The position numbers and the translations under genes were made by a program. Below are positions 12,640 to 22,466 of a stretch of 44,262 nucleotides of DNA, in pieces. How positions within the stretch are numbered: the first letter of the stretch is position 1; the number at the start of each line of letters is the position of its first letter. This DNA comes from an uncultured archaeon (lineage in GTDB: Archaea; Asgardarchaeota; Thorarchaeia; Thorarchaeales; Thorarchaeaceae), in NCBI GenBank assembly GCA_964473825.1, contig CAYYQL010000019.1:1-44262 (forward strand), in the 5' to 3' direction. A model generated the notes under the pieces. The model searched no databases, was not told where the DNA came from, and worked only from the letters and a program-made list of their open reading frames with translations.

Positions 12640-13445
12640 TAACACTAGACTTTCACGTGATGAGTCCATTCTCAGGAACACTGAACTACACTGGTAGCCC
12701 TCTGCGAGCTGCCTTTCTCAACTTGGTGAGAGATTGCGATTATGAACTGAGCAACAATATTCATGAGACGGGGGCCATTCGCCAGTATTCGTTGCACCCG
12801 TTTCCGTTTAACCGCCAGTTCAACACGAATTTCAACGAGGGAGAGGAGTACAGATTCAAAGTCAATCTTCTTGATGCTGACAAGTTCAAAGACGCCATAC
12901 GAAATATCGCCTTGGGCATCAATTCGGACATACGACTCCATCATCACGCATTCCCAATCAGGCGGATTGACTTCGATCATAATGATGCGAATCAGCTCAT
13001 GACTGGATGGACCGAACCTGTGAAGGAGTTGGATGTCAAATCGATCCGAATAGGCATGTATTTTGAAACCCCTACTCAGCTCTCAGTGTATGGAAGCGAC
13101 TATGCATGTGTACTTCCGCAGCCTGCGCGCGTCTTCACAGCATTGCTTCGGGTCTGGGAGTCTATCGAGAAGAGCTCGACAGTCGAATATACCTCGGAGT
13201 ACCGCGACTGGGTGGAGCAGAACGTTCATATCAGTCGCCACCGTATTCATACTGCACATGTCCCGATAGGAAGGCGGCGACAAGTTGTAGGATTTGTGGG
13301 CGATGTGGACTACATCATAGACACAGCGGATTCGCAGCTGGTGGCTCTTACGGTAGGGCTGGCAAGATTCGCTGAATTGAGCAACATAGGAAAAAATCGC
13401 ACTGCCGGATTTGGCAAGGTGTCAGTCGATGTGACTGGGGGTTGA
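12636..13445 (+). CDS. cas6: CRISPR RNA-processing endoribonuclease Cas6
   Basis: C-terminal Gly-rich loop IGKNRTAGFGKV, plus FETPT and GFVG. Confidence 0.92.
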   Translation: MITLDFHVMSPFSGTLNYTGSPLRAAFLNLVRDCDYELSNNIHETGAIRQYSLHPFPFNRQFNTNFNEGEEYRFKVNLLDADKFKDAIRNIALGINSDIRLHHHAFPIRRIDFDHNDANQLMTGWTEPVKELDVKSIRIGMYFETPTQLSVYGSDYACVLPQPARVFTALLRVWESIEKSSTVEYTSEYRDWVEQNVHISRHRIHTAHVPIGRRRQVVGFVGDVDYIIDTADSQLVALTVGLARFAELSNIGKNRTAGFGKVSVDVTGG

Positions 13446-13477
13446 AGGATAAGGCAAAGGCATGATGGAGTTGGAGG

Positions 13478-14428
13478 GTGGAAATGTATCTCATTCCTGA
13501 GAATGTGAAGAGGAGGCTGTTGAGACGGTATCGAAAGAGGTCTCGCGAAGTAGTTGTGGATGAGAGGTTCAGAGGGTGGTCATGGGAGTATCCGCCTCTC
13601 GACCCGCCGTACGACATCCATCTCTCCCTCAGCGAGCTTGCCGGCAGATACTGTGAATCGATGCGCGATATCTATCTGAAGCATGTTGAGGGAATAAAGA
13701 AGCCCACAACAGCCAAGATGATCATGGGAGGACTCTATCACGAGATTGTGGCCCTTGTCTTCGAGAATGCAAAACGCGGCCTCTACAGCCTAGGTCAGGT
13801 GACAGGTACAGAACTCGGCAACCATCTCACAGAGATTCGTGATGACGTCATCGAGGACATGATGAACAAGACCAGAAAGCCGGACGTCACTGACCGCGGC
13901 GGGGGGTGGAACCCTGAGACCATCAGCACGAACCTCGCATGGCTCTGGGACTACGCAGTCAGCCAGATTATAGCATCCGTTGATCGCGTTCGAGCTGACC
14001 AACCGTATATCGGTCTTGATGCTCTCGTAAGCACTGCCTTGCCCATCGTTGTGGAACAAAAGCTCGACGGAAGAAATCTTGGATTGAGTGGCTACCTCAG
14101 CGCTGATGCCTACGGTTCTGAGGGTGTGGTCATGGACATCAAGACGGGGCGAAAGTGGCGATTTCACAGGCTTGCCACAACTGGATATGCCCTGGTGATT
14201 GAGAGTATTCACGAATATCCGGTTGACGTTGGTTGTATCATCTATTGCTGGTTAGAAGGAGCCCCCAAGCCCACAGTCAAGTACGAGGTGCACAGCATTG
14301 ATGAGCCATTACGACAAGAATTCATCGAGAACAGGGATGATGCCATGAAGATAGTATATGACGAACGTGATCCAGGGTTACCGACAAAGTGCTATGAGGA
14401 TTGTCCGTACTGGCACCACTGTCACTGA
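13478..14428 (+). CDS. csa1: Cas4-family protein Csa1/Cas4a
   Basis: RGWSWEYPPLDPP...LSELAGRYCESMRDIYL, DIKTG, GYALVIES and terminal CYEDCPYWHHC. Confidence 0.87.
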   Translation: MEMYLIPENVKRRLLRRYRKRSREVVVDERFRGWSWEYPPLDPPYDIHLSLSELAGRYCESMRDIYLKHVEGIKKPTTAKMIMGGLYHEIVALVFENAKRGLYSLGQVTGTELGNHLTEIRDDVIEDMMNKTRKPDVTDRGGGWNPETISTNLAWLWDYAVSQIIASVDRVRADQPYIGLDALVSTALPIVVEQKLDGRNLGLSGYLSADAYGSEGVVMDIKTGRKWRFHRLATTGYALVIESIHEYPVDVGCIIYCWLEGAPKPTVKYEVHSIDEPLRQEFIENRDDAMKIVYDERDPGLPTKCYEDCPYWHHCH

Positions 14429-14560
14429 AAAAGAAACCAGCTCCGAGGGAGTGCGATGACACCAGACCGCTCGGAGCCTTCCATTGAACTAGGGTGGGGC
14501 ACTCAGGCCCCTTAGACCCACGACCAACCGTGTCTTACCACGGCCAGTCAGGATCCTCAG
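14429..14560 (-). ncRNA. Candidate small structured RNA, convergent with csa1
   Basis: Consecutive hairpins that pair better on the minus strand through G-U pairs (GACTGGCCGTG/CACGGTTGGTC, GCTCCGAG/CTCGGAGC), ending in a T-rich tract. Confidence 0.4.
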
Positions 14561-14663
14561 GATCAAAGACAACTACATACATAGTAATCGATGATACTGG
14601 ACCCAGTCATAGTGAAGGCCTAGAACGCTTCAAGTTGCGACAGCAGACGAAAGCTGTTACACA

Positions 14664-14680
14664 AGAGGAAACTTTCCTCT
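14664..14680. promoter_or_regulatory. Perfect palindrome AGAGGAAA-C-TTTCCTCT upstream of csa3; candidate operator
   Basis: 8-bp inverted repeat with a 1-nt centre, ~50 nt before the csa3 start. Confidence 0.4.
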
Positions 14681-14729
14681 CCAACGGAAAGTCTTATCGG
14701 AGAGCAATGCATCGAACCTGCAGTCAAAA

Positions 14730-15383
14730 ATGAAACTCCACGTGGCTACTCTAGGACTCCACGCGAATCAACGCGTGATTCGTTCAATCATGGAAAGAGG
14801 TGCACAGAAAGTAGTGCTCTTGTTCACCGACAAGAATGAGTCAGAGTTACCACGGTTGTTATCTCTTTTTGAGCAGTCAGGAATACCTGTTGAGAAGATC
14901 AAGACCAAACCTTGGAATTACGACGCGGTTCTCAAGGATATCCTTGAGGTTGTATCGCACCATCCCAATGCAGAGATCGAATTCAACGGATCCTGCGGAA
15001 CAAGAATCATGACGGCAGCCGTATACATGGCCGCCATACTAACACAGTCCCCTGTGTTGATTGTTGCTGAGGACGAAGCGGGAGAGCCCAAGGGAGATCT
15101 CCTCACAATCTCTCCGGGCCAGACCATGAAACTCACACCTCCCAAGATGCGAATCATAGAGAAGCTACTAGACGAAGGCGGCTCAGTTGAAACCCAGAGT
15201 GACCTAGGCTCAAGGCGTAGCCTGAAATCGGGGTCCATCACGAAACATCTGCAAGAACTTGAGAGAGCAGGGTACATCCGTCGGAAGAAGTCAGGCCGGG
15301 CGAAACGTGTGACCCTGACAGACCTCGGACGCGCTATGTTCGATGCCAAGAAGGTCAGAAGACAGAGAATCTGGAGGGGGTAG
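14730..15383 (+). CDS. csa3: Csa3-like CARF-wHTH transcriptional regulator
   Basis: N-terminal Rossmann-like VATLG...NGSCGTRIM; C-terminal wHTH SITKHLQELERAGYI...RVTLTDLG. Confidence 0.8.
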   Translation: MKLHVATLGLHANQRVIRSIMERGAQKVVLLFTDKNESELPRLLSLFEQSGIPVEKIKTKPWNYDAVLKDILEVVSHHPNAEIEFNGSCGTRIMTAAVYMAAILTQSPVLIVAEDEAGEPKGDLLTISPGQTMKLTPPKMRIIEKLLDEGGSVETQSDLGSRRSLKSGSITKHLQELERAGYIRRKKSGRAKRVTLTDLGRAMFDAKKVRRQRIWRG

Positions 15384-17010
15384 GTGTCTGACCTCCAGTT
15401 CTGAGGATTGGATTGAAGGAGAGGGGGTCGATAGACTCTGGAAAAGGCATGCTCAAAACATCTATTCGCAGTTTGGACTGCAGGCATCCCCAAAGCCTGA
15501 GACTGTAAGACTGGTTCGCGAAACCCAACACCTGCCGCCCCATGGGTACTCAAGAGAGGGACCCTCACTCGTACTGTCACAGGAAATCTCCAACGCTGAT
15601 GTACCTCTAGAGGGAATCGTGGCTAGTGAAGCCCTTCGGAGTGCCATCGATGAACTTGCAATCTGTTCCGAGGCCAAGACTGACATTTCCATGGAATATG
15701 CGCGTCAGGCCCTCTCCGGTACTGACGAAGAAAAGTGGCGTGAATGGTGGGCTGAGACCTACCCCAAGCAGAGAGTGTCGCCTAATCTACTACATCATCC
15801 TGCGAGGGTTTTCACTCGGCTCTATAGCATTGCAGGAATAGAAGGCATCCATTCCCTTCTCAGGATGGTAAGAGCCGTATCAAGGACTCAGGACGAACTC
15901 GACCTGGTGGACTACGTTCGGTTACTGCACGTCAGAATCCGCGAGATGAGCTCGACCCTCAATGAGACTGAGCTTCTCATCGCAGCAGAGCTGACTCGCA
16001 GTCACAATGTGACTCTCAAGGAGGTGGCGGAGAAGACAGATTTCAGTCCGCAGTGGGTCTCAAAGAACGTGCGGGAGATGAAGAAGAGAGGTGTCTTACG
16101 AGAGTTCCAACACATCAGATTCTCCAAAGTTGGAATCCGGATGTTCAATGTACTCCTCGCTTCGTCACGAGAAGAGGTCGATCCTCTGGAGCTCGTAGAG
16201 AACTGCCCATTCTTGTATGGATATCGCAGGATTCTGACCGGACGTTGGACTCTCCATGCAGTCTTGACCGTGCCCGACTCGGTGCATAACATCAAGGCCA
16301 TCGAACAGCTTCCCGCTTATGGGAAGAAATGGGGTGTCTTGGTAGACATATCTGAGGTCAGTAGTTCCTGCACAAGATTCGCATTCGAACACTATGACTG
16401 TCAGTCGCAAGCATGGAGGATTCCTTGGCAATCAATTCGAGAAGCCGCAGCTCTGCTACTGAATGGTCATCTCGACATGGATCCAGTGGAGCTCGAATAC
16501 GCCGAACAGAGAATCAAGTATCAGTTGGACAGGCTCGATATCAAGATCATGGATGCCATAAGACGGCGTCTACCGAACATTGCTGCAATACGTCGGGACG
16601 TTCAAGCGAGTCAGAACAAAGTGGCGAGCAAAGTTCAGAAACTGCGCGACCTTGGTGTTATCGTGACCCGTAGGGAGGTACACAACATAGGCTTGAATGA
16701 GGGAGTTGTTATCAAGACACAGGGAGAGAGTCTTGTCCCCGAGTTGCTCTCATGGGTGAACTATCTCCCGAGGTCGATCACCTCCCTAGATACTGCTGGC
16801 AATCTGTTTGTCTCGTCGTACCTTCCCCTTGGTGGCGCCTATGGGGCCATCAGGGCAGCCAGAGAATTCGGCCCAGATGTGTCAGTTAACGTTGTAGGAG
16901 ACTATGTGTATGGAGGCTGGGGATTCCCAGCGGAACTCTGGGACAAAGACAGGCAGCTGTGGACTGCGCCACGCGAGAGAATCATGGATTGGATCGAATT
17001 GCTGAGGTAA
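15343..17010 (+). CDS. ~550-aa protein with tandem wHTH + Lrp/AsnC-like domains (paralog A); true start probably near 15388
   Basis: HTH segments LKEVAEKTDFSPQWVSKNVREM and IAAIRRDVQASQNKVASKVQKLRDLGVI; colinear with 19403-21031. Confidence 0.75.
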   Translation: MPRRSEDRESGGGRCLTSSSEDWIEGEGVDRLWKRHAQNIYSQFGLQASPKPETVRLVRETQHLPPHGYSREGPSLVLSQEISNADVPLEGIVASEALRSAIDELAICSEAKTDISMEYARQALSGTDEEKWREWWAETYPKQRVSPNLLHHPARVFTRLYSIAGIEGIHSLLRMVRAVSRTQDELDLVDYVRLLHVRIREMSSTLNETELLIAAELTRSHNVTLKEVAEKTDFSPQWVSKNVREMKKRGVLREFQHIRFSKVGIRMFNVLLASSREEVDPLELVENCPFLYGYRRILTGRWTLHAVLTVPDSVHNIKAIEQLPAYGKKWGVLVDISEVSSSCTRFAFEHYDCQSQAWRIPWQSIREAAALLLNGHLDMDPVELEYAEQRIKYQLDRLDIKIMDAIRRRLPNIAAIRRDVQASQNKVASKVQKLRDLGVIVTRREVHNIGLNEGVVIKTQGESLVPELLSWVNYLPRSITSLDTAGNLFVSSYLPLGGAYGAIRAAREFGPDVSVNVVGDYVYGGWGFPAELWDKDRQLWTAPRERIMDWIELLR

Positions 17011-17046
17011 ACCAGAATCAATCTCTGATTCTAGATGGCCTGACAA

Positions 17047-17150
17047 GGGGGCTCTTATAAAGGACTATACAGAATGGAGGCCCCCGCCGCGGTTCTTCGA
17101 AAGAAGGTTTATGAGGACTTCTCTCGTTAAATAGAGCGAAAAACCCGCGG
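17047..17150 (+). promoter_or_regulatory. Leader of array 2
   Basis: Homologous to leader 1; CTTATAAA and TTAAATAG boxes. Confidence 0.9.
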
Positions 17151-18489
17151 GTTGCAGAAGTAAATCCCAGATTGAGGGAATTGAAAGGGATATAGGTCTT
17201 TCATCCAGACCCCGTAACGGTGGCGCTGTTGCAGAAGTAAATCCCAGATTGAGGGAATTGAAAGTTGCTAGGATTACACTCGTTGTTCGATCAGACATGT
17301 TTCCGTTGCAGAAGTAAATCCCAGATTGAGGGAATTGAAAGCCGTAGTATTTGTCTTTGACAATCCGCACAAGCTCCATAGTTGCAGAAGTAAATCCCAG
17401 ATTGAGGGAATTGAAAGCTCAGCTCAAGGCCTTCATTGATTATCAGTTCAGCCCAGTGTTGCAGAAGTAAATCCCAGATTGAGGGAATTGAAAGGGGTGT
17501 AACCCTTGCGACTCTAACGCTCGCTCTATCAACTCAGTTGCAGAAGTAAATCCCAGATTGAGGGAATTGAAAGACAACGGCCCATTTAGGCCCCTGTTGG
17601 GTTAACTCAAGGTTGCAGAAGTAAATCCCAGATTGAGGGAATTGAAAGACCACCGGCCAGTAGCCGATAGCTGGTTGACGGGGGGACTGTTGCAGAAGTA
17701 AATCCCAGATTGAGGGAATTGAAAGGTTCAGGAGGCGCTTGAAAGACGTATTTCTCTTTGTCGGCGTTGCAGAAGTAAATCCCAGATTGAGGGAATTGAA
17801 AGTTTCTTTAGCGGCGTCAACGGTAAACGTTGGCGTTGGAGAAGTTGCAGAAGTAAATCCCAGATTGAGGGAATTGAAAGTTTCTTTAGCGGCGTCAACG
17901 GTAAACGTTGGCGTTGGAGAAGTTGCAGAAGTAAATCCCAGATTGAGGGAATTGAAAGAGACACTTACGCACGCTAGTCGGCCTCCGGGATAGCACCATG
18001 TTGCAGAAGTAAATCCCAGATTGAGGGAATTGAAAGGATATCGAGGCCTTGATTGAAGTTCACTCTGAGACCGTTGCAGAAGTAAATCCCAGATTGAGGG
18101 AATTGAAAGGTTCCATCTAAGAAGAAAAGAGGAAGAAGGAGGTCAAAAAGTTGCAGAAGTAAATCCCAGATTGAGGGAATTGAAAGAAGTGTTAAGATTT
18201 TGATAGGGAAGTTTGTCTTGTCCTGCAGTTGCAGAAGTAAATCCCAGATTGAGGGAATTGAAAGTTCTTGTTCATTGATTGTTTGCATAGTTGTTTCATT
18301 CGTTGCAGAAGTAAATCCCAGATTGAGGGAATTGAAAGACGACACGCCTCTCCAACTTGGGCATCCGATACTGTGTGCGTTGCAGAAGTAAATCCCAGAT
18401 TGAGGGAATTGAAAGGGATCAGGCAGTCCTGTTACCGAAGTAAACTCGGTATGTTGCAGAAGTAAATCCCAGATTGAGGGAATTGAAAG
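17151..18489 (+). CRISPR. CRISPR array 2: 18 intact 37-bp repeats GTTGCAGAAGTAAATCCCAGATTGAGGGAATTGAAAG, plus a degenerate terminal repeat at 18527-18563
   Basis: Repeats counted by eye; differs from the array 1 repeat at 4 positions. Confidence 0.98.
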
Positions 18490-18526
18490 GGCTCGTGTGA
18501 AAGGTAAGAAATGGAAGAAACAGCTA

Positions 18527-18622
18527 GTTGTAGGGATGGATCTCAAATCGAAAGAATGGTGGGAGAAGAAGTTGGAGGCTCTGGGATTGCAGAACCCCAC
18601 CTCTTCCAATCAGTCTTGAAAC
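18527..18622 (+). repeat. Two degenerate repeat-like 37-mers separated by 22 nt
   Basis: 18527-18563 matches the array 2 repeat at 22/37 positions. 18586-18622 is ATTGCAGAA...TTGAAAC, 37 nt with repeat-like ends. Confidence 0.55.
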
Positions 18623-19030
18623 AAGAGAGTACAAGTCCGGGCCTACGTTATTTTCGGAGTGAAGTGATGAGTGGTAAGAATGAGGTGGCGCCCACGCGGG
18701 TAATCGTGGTAGGAGGGGGGAGTTTCGTAATTGAGGGCATGTAACGAAAACTAGCCCGCACAGGCGCCTTGTTGTCGACGTTTCATGCCGCTCAACTATA
18801 GTTGTGGAGGGCTTCCTAATAAATCCAACTGATGTGTACAGCTGCTTACTCAACACATCCCGACATTAGTATGCAAATCCACAGAAACAGTAGTTAATAA
18901 TTCATATCAATACCAATCTCCCACCCCTTAGGCTAGTGGGTCACCGCACAGGCCTAAAATTCGGCCTCTAAGGCACATTTCGAGAGAAGCACCCTTCTAT
19001 TATATACCCGTTTCAAGTTCTGGAAACATA

Positions 19031-19351
19031 CATTCCGTGTGGATGAGGGTCAGCGGACCCTACGGGATGGCATTGGTATCCAGACGTAGAGTCTGTTCGA
19101 CGGATGCGGTAGCACGGGAACAACTCGCATTGTCTCCTTACGGACGACGACCGTGAAGTGTCAATGAGTCCACTGAGGAAGTAGTATCCCTCGGTGAACA
19201 CCGTCATTGATGCTCACTGGCCCCGCGTTCTGGCCCAGTCCATCCGAACAAGGAGTCCGTGCAGGCCCCGCCCCTAGGGGTCTGCGGCATTGCATAGGGA
19301 ACAAAACAGTAGGAGAGGGGGGGACACCCCTCGTCTCCTACAACTTTTTTT
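19031..19351 (+). ncRNA. Putative ~320-nt structured ncRNA with its own TATA box and terminator
   Basis: TTATATA at 19000-19006, first helix starting at 19031, at least 6 hairpins, and a terminal hairpin followed by T7. Confidence 0.65.
19309..19351 (+). terminator. Hairpin plus oligo-T terminator
   Basis: GTAGGAGA-GGGG...CCCC-TC-GTCTCCTAC followed by AAC and TTTTTTT. Confidence 0.75.
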
Positions 19352-19402
19352 GTGGAGATGTCATACTCATGATGAGACTCATGTTTGATCATGGTTCAGT
19401 AG

Positions 19403-21031
19403 GTGGGAATTCGGTTGTCCAAGAAGCCTGATGCAGAAAGGGTCACGCATGTCCACAGGATATGGAATCAAGCGCAGGATGAGATCAGAGATCGTTTTGG
19501 ATTGGATGCTCCCGACCTCCAGATAAAAGAGGTGGTGATAGATGGAACTCATCGATTTGGCGCCATCAAGAATGAGACCCTCTATGTCCCTGATGATATC
19601 CCCATAGAGGGGGTTGTGGCCAGCCTCTGTCTCCGCAAGGCGATGGGCAGTGACAAGATCTGCAGAAACTGTATTGACGATCTAGCCATGGAGTTTGCCC
19701 GTCAGTTCTTGGAGGGAGATGCGAGAGAACGCTGGTTCAAGGTTTGGCTCGAGCACACACAGATGCGCTATCCGGACAGCCCACTCTCCTATCATCCAAG
19801 CTGGACATATCGCTTTGTTCACAGGATGGTGGGCCAAGAGGGTTTGGATGAGATTGTGCGCGAAGTCAGAGATCTGGATCGTTGTGATATATTCATGGGG
19901 AAGGAAGACTACGTCATCTTCCTGAAGACCCGCCTTCGACGGTTCGTGGTTCCGCTTAACTCAACGGAACTCAAACTCCTCGACGTCCTGCTTCGAAACC
20001 CCAATACCGCATTCAAGGATATCAGCGACGACCTGAACATGAGCCCACAATGGGTATCAAAGAAGATCAAAGACCTGAGACTCAGGAGGGTATTGCGCAA
20101 ACATGACAGGGTACCGCTCTCCAGGATTGGGATCCGGAGTTTCCATGTCCTCATCGGCTGTGAAGACAAATCCCGGAGTCTTGTGTCGTATCTGACCAGC
20201 AGTCCTTTCCTGTACAAATCTCATAATATGATGAGCGGCATCTGGGATCTTGAAGCGTCGCTGTGCGTTCCCGATAACAGGATTAATGTCCTTGCCCTCG
20301 AGAAGTTCGTGACCGAGATGGAAGAACGCGGGATTCAAGCAGAGGTGCTAGAGGTCGATTCTACAGGAATCTCGCACTGCTATGACCACTATGTGCCCTC
20401 TGAGTCTGGATGGCATATCCCTTGGGAGGTCATGAGGGTACAGCTGAGGAAGATCTACAATGATGAGCTCGCCGATGTGATTCCTCGGATAGACGAGCGG
20501 TCAAACAGAACGAACCTCTATCTCGATGAACTCGATATGAGGATATTCAATCTTGCACAGAAGGGGATCACTTCAATCTCCAGGGTTAGAGACAGGCTAC
20601 GCATGGCACAGGAGACCGTGGCACACAGACTGAAGCGACTCAAGAACGATGGCCTCATCGATAACAGATACTCAGCCCAGAACATCGGCCTCATCGAGAA
20701 GGCGCTGATAATGACAGAAGATGAACGCACCGGGGAGGCCATGGCTGCATGGGCCCAGCGGCTCCCTCAGGCAATCATCTCCTTTACACGAGAGGGGACT
20801 CTTTACAGCCAACTCTGGTTGCCTGTTGGTGGAGGATATGGAGCCATGTGGGCCCTCGATGTTCTTCCAATCAGGGTAACAGCTGGCCTGTTATCCCTTC
20901 CAGCGGTGTTCAACTACTGGATACCGCACAGGCTGTGGGATGTTGACAACCAGAGTTGGCGGCATTCATCTGAAGCACTAGAGAAGTGGTTCACATCGCT
21001 CGATGAGGCTGACCGTGAGGTCAGACCCTAG
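19403..21031 (+). CDS. ~540-aa tandem wHTH + Lrp/AsnC-like protein (paralog B)
   Basis: Shares SPQWVSK, PFLY, VPD, W.IPW, NIGL.E, LP.GG.YGA and LWD blocks with 15343-17010. Confidence 0.8.
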   Translation: MGIRLSKKPDAERVTHVHRIWNQAQDEIRDRFGLDAPDLQIKEVVIDGTHRFGAIKNETLYVPDDIPIEGVVASLCLRKAMGSDKICRNCIDDLAMEFARQFLEGDARERWFKVWLEHTQMRYPDSPLSYHPSWTYRFVHRMVGQEGLDEIVREVRDLDRCDIFMGKEDYVIFLKTRLRRFVVPLNSTELKLLDVLLRNPNTAFKDISDDLNMSPQWVSKKIKDLRLRRVLRKHDRVPLSRIGIRSFHVLIGCEDKSRSLVSYLTSSPFLYKSHNMMSGIWDLEASLCVPDNRINVLALEKFVTEMEERGIQAEVLEVDSTGISHCYDHYVPSESGWHIPWEVMRVQLRKIYNDELADVIPRIDERSNRTNLYLDELDMRIFNLAQKGITSISRVRDRLRMAQETVAHRLKRLKNDGLIDNRYSAQNIGLIEKALIMTEDERTGEAMAAWAQRLPQAIISFTREGTLYSQLWLPVGGGYGAMWALDVLPIRVTAGLLSLPAVFNYWIPHRLWDVDNQSWRHSSEALEKWFTSLDEADREVRP

Positions 21032-22466
21032 GCCACTTGGGACGAATCTCCACACCCGAACGTTCAAGCAGATCAGGAATGCGTCGTCTCGACTTCTCGA
21101 TGATGGCCTGCTCATCAATTGTGAGAAGTTCTCGGTTACGCATGAGGACTCTGCCGTCGACGATAACATCAGTAACATCCCTTCCAGAACCCGCATATAC
21201 CAGATTTGAGACGGGATTAGGTGAGGGATTCAGGCCCACATAGTCTAGTGATACCACAATCAGGTCTGCTCGCTTGCCCACTTCCAGAGAACCCACCAGA
21301 CGCTCAATGCCCATAGCACGAGCTCCTGCCAGAGTAGCCATCTCGATGACATCTTCAGCACTCACAACCAGCGGGTCGTCTGCAATCGGTTTGTGAATCA
21401 GTGCTGCAAGCCGCATCTCACGGATCATATCATAGGTGTTATTACTAGGTCCACCGTCACAGCCTAGGGAGACCGCCACACCGCGGTCGAGCATATAAGG
21501 GACCTTCGCAAACCCTGACGCTAGTTTGGTGTTGCTGGCGGGACAGTGGGAGATGTGTGACCCTGTTTCTGCCAGAACACCCAGTTCATCCTCTTCGAAG
21601 TGGATTCCGTGGGCGAAAACCATGTCAGGACCCAGGAGATCCATGTCCCTTGCGAAGCTGGTGAGATTCGGATAGCCCCGCGACTCGACATACCGGACGT
21701 CGTCAACAACCTCTCCAAGGTGCATGGTCATTCTGGTCTTCTTGGACCGTGCAGTCTCAGTGACTTCTCGGAAGAGCTCGTCAGTGACTGCTCCAAGAGA
21801 GCGGAGGCCATACCAAACCTGTATCCTATCATTCGCCTCACCGTGCCATTTCTCGTACATGTTCTCGGTCTCGCGCATGCAGTCATCAGCATCTTCGACC
21901 ATCCCGGGATACATGATGTCATCACTGTCGGCATAGCCGGTGGAGTCCATGATGATCTTTGAGAGAGCACCCCGCATACCCACCCGTTCCAGTGTCTTTG
22001 CAATACCGTCGAATCCGTAGCGGGTGTGAATCATGCACTCGATAAAAGAGGTTGTTCCCGTCCGTATCATCTCTGCCATACACAGCTCTGCGGACAGCTG
22101 GCCGTCATCCGTCGTGTAGTTTCCCTGAAGAACCCAGACGCAGTTCTTCAGCCAGTCCACCAGAGAGACATCATCGGCACAGCCCCGTATCAGGGCCTGA
22201 GCAAGATGCACATGCGTGTCGATCAGACCCGGCATCACAATCGAGCCATGAGCATCGATCACAGTATCAGCGTCATGGTGCTTGAGGTCCTCTGTTGGCC
22301 CGATTTCACGGATTGTATCCTCTTCGATGTATAGAGCGCCGTCCGGAATAATCTCGCGTTTCTTGTTTAGAGTCAGCACATATCCGTTCTTCACAAGGAT
22401 GGACTTTGACAAAATGGCAACCTCTCTATGTGATGTATTTGGTTCCAGTAAAAAGGGGTTCGCCAT
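21021..22466 (-). CDS. Metal-dependent amidohydrolase (MTA/SAH or purine deaminase, SsnA-like); probable start TTG 22412
   Basis: MPGLIDTHVH, MHLGE, AHGIH, SHCPASN.KL.SG and LGCDG motifs. Confidence 0.9.
   Translation of the reverse strand: MANPFLLEPNTSHREVAILSKSILVKNGYVLTLNKKREIIPDGALYIEEDTIREIGPTEDLKHHDADTVIDAHGSIVMPGLIDTHVHLAQALIRGCADDVSLVDWLKNCVWVLQGNYTTDDGQLSAELCMAEMIRTGTTSFIECMIHTRYGFDGIAKTLERVGMRGALSKIIMDSTGYADSDDIMYPGMVEDADDCMRETENMYEKWHGEANDRIQVWYGLRSLGAVTDELFREVTETARSKKTRMTMHLGEVVDDVRYVESRGYPNLTSFARDMDLLGPDMVFAHGIHFEEDELGVLAETGSHISHCPASNTKLASGFAKVPYMLDRGVAVSLGCDGGPSNNTYDMIREMRLAALIHKPIADDPLVVSAEDVIEMATLAGARAMGIERLVGSLEVGKRADLIVVSLDYVGLNPSPNPVSNLVYAGSGRDVTDVIVDGRVLMRNRELLTIDEQAIIEKSRRRIPDLLERSGVEIRPKWPRV

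Follow-up and report, generated by a model that had tools for sequence, protein, structure and literature searches.

The window, a stretch of 44,262 nt of Thorarchaeota DNA, carries a leader RNA with its own TATA box and terminator-like hairpin ahead of a gene for a wHTH regulator (paralogue B), a divergent small RNA, and a convergent amidohydrolase gene (Table 1). Relatives of the protein encoded downstream of the leader mark the source organism as a Thorarchaeote. The protein model of paralogue B (pLDDT 95) has its best matches in NirDL and Lrp/AsnC proteins. Its GTG is GCG in L047 and a TTG is found in all four sequences compared, and the gene probably starts at this TTG (19415), after a Shine-Dalgarno (SD)-like site at 19401-19408.

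Table 1. Features of the leader RNA, the small RNA and the adjoining genes (window coordinates).
Feature	Position	Strand	Remarks
Small RNA, divergent, about 90 nt	18680..18800	-	230 nt upstream of the leader; 83/86 family genomes
Small RNA: 14-bp terminal stem	18683-18768	-	Compensatory changes
Small RNA: invariant C-rich strand	18708-18720	-	
Small RNA: invariant apical loop	18732-18741	-	
Small RNA: 5' extension with cis copy of box 1	18784-18795	-	
Small RNA: TATA-like site	18816-18825	-	
TATA box of the leader RNA	18998..19007	+	Identical in G000, G002, L047 and L048
Structured leader RNA, about 320 nt	19031..19351	+	Start inferred from TATA spacing; z -4.78; four homologues
Box 1, AUGAGGGU	19043..19050	+	Complementary to the small RNA apical loop; within the 5' hairpin domain 19031-19069
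Expansion: long-range rod with two arms, 3' hairpin and possible pseudoknot	19065..19301	+	Pair probabilities and conservation
Expansion: 3' hairpin	19261-19285	+	
Expansion: possible CCCUA/UAGGG pseudoknot	19272-19276 with 19295-19299	+	Invariant
Terminator-like hairpin and T7 tract	19309..19351	+	Strongest in the genome; z -5.5; formed by a different sequence in L048
Box 2, G-rich, 5' arm of the terminator hairpin	19309..19323	+	Complementary to the small RNA C-rich strand
wHTH paralogue B: N-terminal domain and two Lrp/AsnC-like modules	19403..21031	+	Pfam HTH_24
Amidohydrolase gene, synteny anchor of the cassette	21021..22466	-	Convergent with the wHTH gene in five genera

The region 19025-19355 folds at -144.5 kcal/mol, a value equalled by none of 100 shuffled sequences, and the minus strand of the same region gave a z-score of only -2.08. 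Without its terminator the leader retained a z-score of -3.9, and none of 107 random windows of the genome was as low (minimum -3.0). The 3' hairpin (19309-19341, -26.8 kcal/mol) is followed by a T7 at 19345-19351, and together they rank first among the 403 T6 tracts of the genome, whose non-coding T tracts show a modest excess of preceding strong hairpins (11% versus 2% at -15 kcal/mol). Between the end of the T7 and the GTG at 19403 lie 51 nt, and no canonical TATA box was found between the terminator and the wHTH gene. The leader is present as a single copy in the genome, has no Rfam match at the gathering threshold or at E<=10, and gave no ARAGORN call; its short ORFs shift frame and end at different stops, with none conserved across the four homologues. 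We consider the leader almost certainly to be a real, uncatalogued RNA. The initial annotation had described a TTATATA at 19000-19006, a strong hairpin with T7 some 50 nt before paralogue B, and a novel structured RNA without a credible ORF, all of which were borne out, and the Rfam check that it advised for SRP RNA, RNase P RNA and riboswitches returned no housekeeping identity.

Every inverted repeat listed in that annotation is present in the sequence, although not all of them are likely to be helices of the RNA. The first helix is fully conserved and is the earliest to form in 5' prefixes; it is displaced in the full-length minimum free energy (MFE) fold of three of the four sequences, and the 5' domain has two mutually exclusive folds. 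The proposed CAGAC/GTCTG and ACTGG/CCAGT helices, in contrast, are probably wrong, with pair probabilities of about 0 and disruption in L048, the most distant homologue; their strands form instead the long-range rod, in which 19072-19086 pairs with 19226-19239 in all four homologues. Formal covariation was not significant in this set of four leader sequences, three of which are nearly alike (one doubly changed pair; score reached by 91 of 500 shuffles), and the possible pseudoknot is unproven because its strands are invariant. In three homologues we found no shared bulge-helix-bulge motif that would mark the expansion as flanked by intron ends.

The TATA box, RNA and terminator are kept ahead of the orthologous gene in G002, L047 and L048, down to approximately 72% identity. 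Compared with L048, whose own leader folds with a z-score of -5.8, identity is 65-80% in the leader RNA, 48-59% in the flanks and 51% at third codon positions. BLAST and a sequence-only model, run over 86 family genomes, recovered the same-genus copy alone, and the distant members of the family were located by synteny; a pattern scan of metagenomes gave three matches, all of them chance occurrences in coding regions. The leaders thus collected range from 60 to 320 nt, the RNA of the window being the longest form, and most keep two short motifs: box 1, UGAGGG near the leader start, and box 2, GGUAG..GGGGGGAC. Leaders of about 190 nt in a second genus, before a syntenic or paralogous wHTH gene, and of about 170 nt in a third (G009) carry the same boxes; a leader of about 100 nt in G016 is missing box 1, and one of about 60 nt precedes a third wHTH paralogue on contig C58 of the window genome, and also in G001 and G002. 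Close variants of the TATA box precede these shorter relatives, which have weak hairpins and no T7.

The boxes are constrained in position as well as in sequence. GAGGG stands 35-46 nt after the TATA start in nine of 11 leaders, with box 1 invariant in A3, while box 2, conserved upstream of syntenic wHTH orthologues, lies 124-125 nt upstream of a common protein anchor in the long and the minimal leader alike. The strict G-run motif occurs seven times in 6.5 Mb (both strands of the window genome) and is present in G009 and G034, two genomes picked by synteny; in G034 another, convergent RNA stands between the box-2 motif and the wHTH operon. Since wHTH leaders of 60-190 nt share the boxes (box 2 alone in G016), the 320-nt RNA is the expanded form of a two-box leader. 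The expansion is missing from the minimal relatives, and the body of 260 nt lies outside the shared core of the family; the existence of 60-nt relatives makes this large body dispensable.

In 19 of the 26 amidohydrolase loci that were read outside the two leader-bearing genera, an ABC permease adjoins the amidohydrolase (gaps of 6-81 nt) and both the RNA and the wHTH gene are missing, which supports the reading of leader and gene as one cassette. An inserted wHTH gene that shares no operon with another gene is usually headed by a TATA-driven leader. The leader was never found away from a wHTH gene, and the leader family appears to be present or absent jointly with the tandem-Lrp wHTH gene. Synteny and co-occurrence thus uphold the tie to the wHTH paralogue that had been proposed from the sequence, and the accompanying expectation of homologues upstream of other paralogues holds in part: several have shorter leaders, but the non-operonic paralogues L055, L059, L070 and L073-L079 have none. 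A leader was also predicted directly upstream of P0005, which groups weakly with paralogue B in the tree; the prediction failed, and P0005 is operonic. Upstream of L073-L079, which form a separate wHTH clade, lies another conserved non-coding block, possibly a third RNA family. In G002, an island of about 46 kb holding CRISPR-Cas genes (contig C4, 80750-128957; L191, L193, L051) separates minimal-leader from long-leader wHTH paralogues, within the ABC permease-amidohydrolase gap.

The divergent small RNA is found in one to ten copies per genome in the 83 family genomes that hold it. Its exact core pattern occurs in none of 314 other Asgard genomes, and it has no Rfam match. Three paralogues in G009 (L206, L211 and L225) contain five insertions of 30-31 nt whose removal restores the invariant core exactly. 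The three that were scored have a 3-nt bulge on either side of a central 4-nt helix, as archaeal introns do, and these intron-like ends support both the strand and the RNA nature of the small RNA; the insertions would be introns of the archaeal type in an RNA outside the tRNA and rRNA classes. In one subfamily a 5' extension is complementary to the invariant core of the same RNA, which may thereby mask itself, and a diverged copy (near 51350 of contig C13 in G000; L218 in G009) keeps the C-rich strand and has lost the apical loop. The apical loop is also complementary to 8 nt of the CRISPR repeat (17151-18489), probably by chance. Identity to G002 (L002/L015) stops at 18676, the 3' end of the small RNA, beyond which lie the CRISPR array in the window and a 995-aa ORF in G002, as at an integration site.

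Both boxes of the leader are complementary to invariant parts of this small RNA. The predicted duplex of box 2 (-27.7 kcal/mol) is reached by 0.09% of non-coding windows and that of box 1 (-11.9 kcal/mol) by 4.5%; in G001 and G002, box 1 forms 12 consecutive pairs. Box 2 is laid out as GGUAG, a variable insert of 4-11 nt, a G run and AC, as expected for pairing to a contiguous guide. Real seeds outperformed composition-matched shuffled seeds (P<=0.01) in 10 of 11 leaders, which are kin from about four lineages and not independent samples; the exception was G016 (P 0.13). When the 499 non-coding TATA-like sites of the window genome were scored, with scan windows fixed after both leaders had been seen, the two wHTH leaders came first and second (-41.1 and -39.9) and the small RNA's own 5' extension third, the next site reaching -32.4. 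Whole-molecule cofolding of the finished RNA with the neighbouring small-RNA copy gave almost no binding (-0.8 kcal/mol), and that of the nascent leader no gain over shuffled small RNAs, with a program that cannot draw the crossed topology of two sites. A compensatory test is ruled out because the small RNA core is invariant. Neither the small RNA nor the leader has a long complement in 16S, 23S, SRP or RNase P RNA. Overall, we consider pairing between leader and small RNA rather probable. Because the two boxes follow one another in permuted order compared with their counterparts in the small RNA, binding would form two separate helices; the permutation also makes it unlikely that the leader arose from a small-RNA gene by inversion.

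Our best reading, to which we give a probability of about 0.45, is that of a small-RNA-gated leader controlling read-through into the wHTH regulator gene. The RNA would be both the 5' leader and the terminated, stand-alone form of a cassette of leader and tandem-Lrp wHTH gene, and a base-pairing target of the multicopy small RNA. Transcription would start near 19030 and normally stop at the T tract, releasing a stable RNA of about 320 nt. Box 1 would be captured by the small RNA as it emerges, and the rod would then fold the spacer out and bring box 2 alongside; in the predicted fold the expansion holds the two boxes close, with the closing stem of the rod setting them side by side. Pairing of box 2 before the 3' arm is made would prevent the hairpin, altering read-through or processing and with it the level of the regulator mRNA. 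In the finished long form box 2 is paired at a probability of about 1.0, and box 1 is paired too, while the short forms have weaker hairpins; with box 2 locked in the terminator, productive binding would need to be co-transcriptional. Activation is the simpler guess for the sign of control. A more specific version, in which the small RNA would be a two-point trans-antiterminator acting on the nascent leaders of the tandem-Lrp family, with a freely expanding scaffold between the boxes, is speculative, and so is its corollary of a T-box-like logic with a non-tRNA ligand and RNA-gated termination in archaea.

Several alternatives were weighed against the gated leader. The transcript might work as a free-standing RNA, either soaking up the small RNA as a sponge or joining it as one part of a bipartite RNA that the wHTH protein may carry; the gene would then have a weak promoter of its own, and read-through would be incidental. 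We judge this unlikely; it stays a real rival because archaeal terminators studied so far rely on U tracts and aCPSF1 and do not strictly need a hairpin (PMC8716108), because the short forms have weak hairpins, and because of the G034 layout. The T tract of the leader might, moreover, double as a weak TATA box for the wHTH gene, which counts against gating. A free RNA would fit the paired ends, the size and stability of the fold and a terminator stronger than any other in the genome, another conserved RNA flanks other wHTH paralogues, and the opposition of G-rich boxes to C-rich loops recalls RosA of Bacillus subtilis, a sponge of about 230 nt for RoxS and FsrA whose G-rich boxes face C-rich sRNA regions (PMC8216469). 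However, the boxes of RosA are single-stranded, whereas the finished leader locks box 2 in its terminator hairpin and pairs box 1, both in cis, leaving no accessible G-rich boxes in the mature RNA. The two RNAs share no homology, and the leader, unlike RosA, is tied to one gene family, from which it is never separated and at a fixed distance from the gene. Somewhat less likely again is a switch acting in cis alone (a riboswitch, or an attenuator bound by a protein or coupled to translation), with the two boxes competing for one 3' pyrimidine strand and the likeness to the small RNA incidental. The two exclusive folds of the 5' domain accord with such a switch, and box 1 is able to pair with the 3' strand both in the constrained fold and in the minimal leader; but forbidding the terminator cost 19-24 kcal/mol, and the alternatives that result differ between homologues, with no helix common to them and no conserved antiterminator competing with the terminator. 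Given this cost, the want of a shared alternative and the dispensable body, the classical cis attenuator or riboswitch, which the initial annotation had offered as one of two options, is not supported. Known riboswitch classes were rejected, with no Rfam aptamer at E<=10 and no cobalamin match in the genome, as was a leader-peptide attenuator, the short ORFs being frameshifted and differently stopped among the four homologues; nor does cis pairing explain the 12-pair match to the small RNA. The description of the RNA as self-contained also overlooks its most important trait, its conserved parts being two short boxes complementary to a separate small RNA.

The remaining explanations are improbable to varying degrees. 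Were the boxes SD-like ribosome loading sites and the small RNA an anti-SD mimic, the complementarity would be a by-product of the 16S tail, and AGGAG does lie within box 2 and CCUCCU within the small RNA, in a family whose 16S tail is the normal GAUCACCUCCU. Against this improbable reading, neither box has a conserved start codon after it, and the match runs into the C run and the apical loop, both absent from the 16S tail. A role of the small RNA as substitute for a lost 16S tail is discounted, that tail being normal; separately, the 16S rRNA 3' end of G021 (L095) has an insertion of about 90 nt, absent in G010, that bears tandem hairpins and interrupts the last helix before the anti-SD tail. 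Slightly more improbable is that the boxes act as DNA, as wHTH operators or as targets of an RNA-guided complex of wHTH protein and small RNA that autoregulates the cassette. The gene does encode an HTH regulator and box 1 stands at a nearly fixed distance from the TATA box, yet the boxes are not palindromic, their spacing varies from a few to about 260 nt, and long spacers adopt RNA folds that place the boxes next to each other. A diverged housekeeping RNA (SRP or RNase P) or the remnant of a mobile element is very improbable indeed, even though the locus borders a CRISPR-Cas island and the leader contains short words reminiscent of RNase P. In length (about 300 nt), TATA-driven transcription and branched rod shape it does resemble archaeal SRP RNA (RF01857) and RNase P RNA (RF00373), but it lacks a match to either model, shows neither the helix-8 motif nor the P4 pseudoknot, has a dispensable body and is patchily distributed; canonical copies of the SRP and RNase P RNAs lie on contigs C2 and C3. 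Single copy number, the absence of any Rfam match at E<=10 and the lack of an adjoining nuclease gene also speak against this origin. A CRISPR-regulated RNA of the CreT/CreA or CreR type was rejected as well: no guide in the degenerate tail of the array matches the leader promoter, the best match (14/22, longest run 6) falls at the terminator, and leader relatives occur without an array. This degenerate-repeat tail (18490-18660 of the window) is 80% identical in L048 and has no convincing target in 13000-22000.

The small-RNA-gated leader comes closest to UpsM of Rhodobacter sphaeroides, a 268-nt 5' leader with an intrinsic terminator that is released as a stable RNA, and its trans-acting sRNA StsR, which pairs with UpsM and alters read-through transcripts (PMC5089854, PMC8266604). 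As in that system, we find a promoter, a long leader and a terminator upstream of a same-strand gene, the first of its unit, and conserved complementarity to a trans-encoded sRNA, the pairing being a prediction here. UpsM/StsR is, in contrast, bacterial and dependent on Hfq and RNase E, and shares no sequence likeness or homology with the archaeal leader, which has two boxes in permuted order, one of them inside the terminator arm, and which varies between 60 and 320 nt in length.

T-box leaders capture a small structured RNA at two points, the first close to the leader's 5' end and the second at its terminator. The Thorarchaeota leader would follow the same two-point logic, but the ligand is not a tRNA (no ARAGORN call), and the leader has no T-box Rfam match and no antiterminator helix in cis.

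The window also holds a second uncatalogued RNA family (14430-14620, minus strand), divergent from a CARF-like/wHTH operon, with a conserved CCAGA.UGGCC.UGG core, a hairpin and a U tract; we identified it at 14 loci in many genera, often right after csa1.

Literature searches returned no published description of the leader or of its pairing, and no case of sRNA control of premature termination in an archaeon; the link between small RNA and leader is new here. A small RNA kept in several copies, with an invariant core, in nearly every Thorarchaeota genome thereby gains a first well-defined target that can be put to the test, and the small size of both molecules permits gel shifts and in vitro transcription with no need of a culture. 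Should their pairing control read-through, this would be an archaeal instance of premature termination governed by an sRNA, from a lineage close to the eukaryotes.
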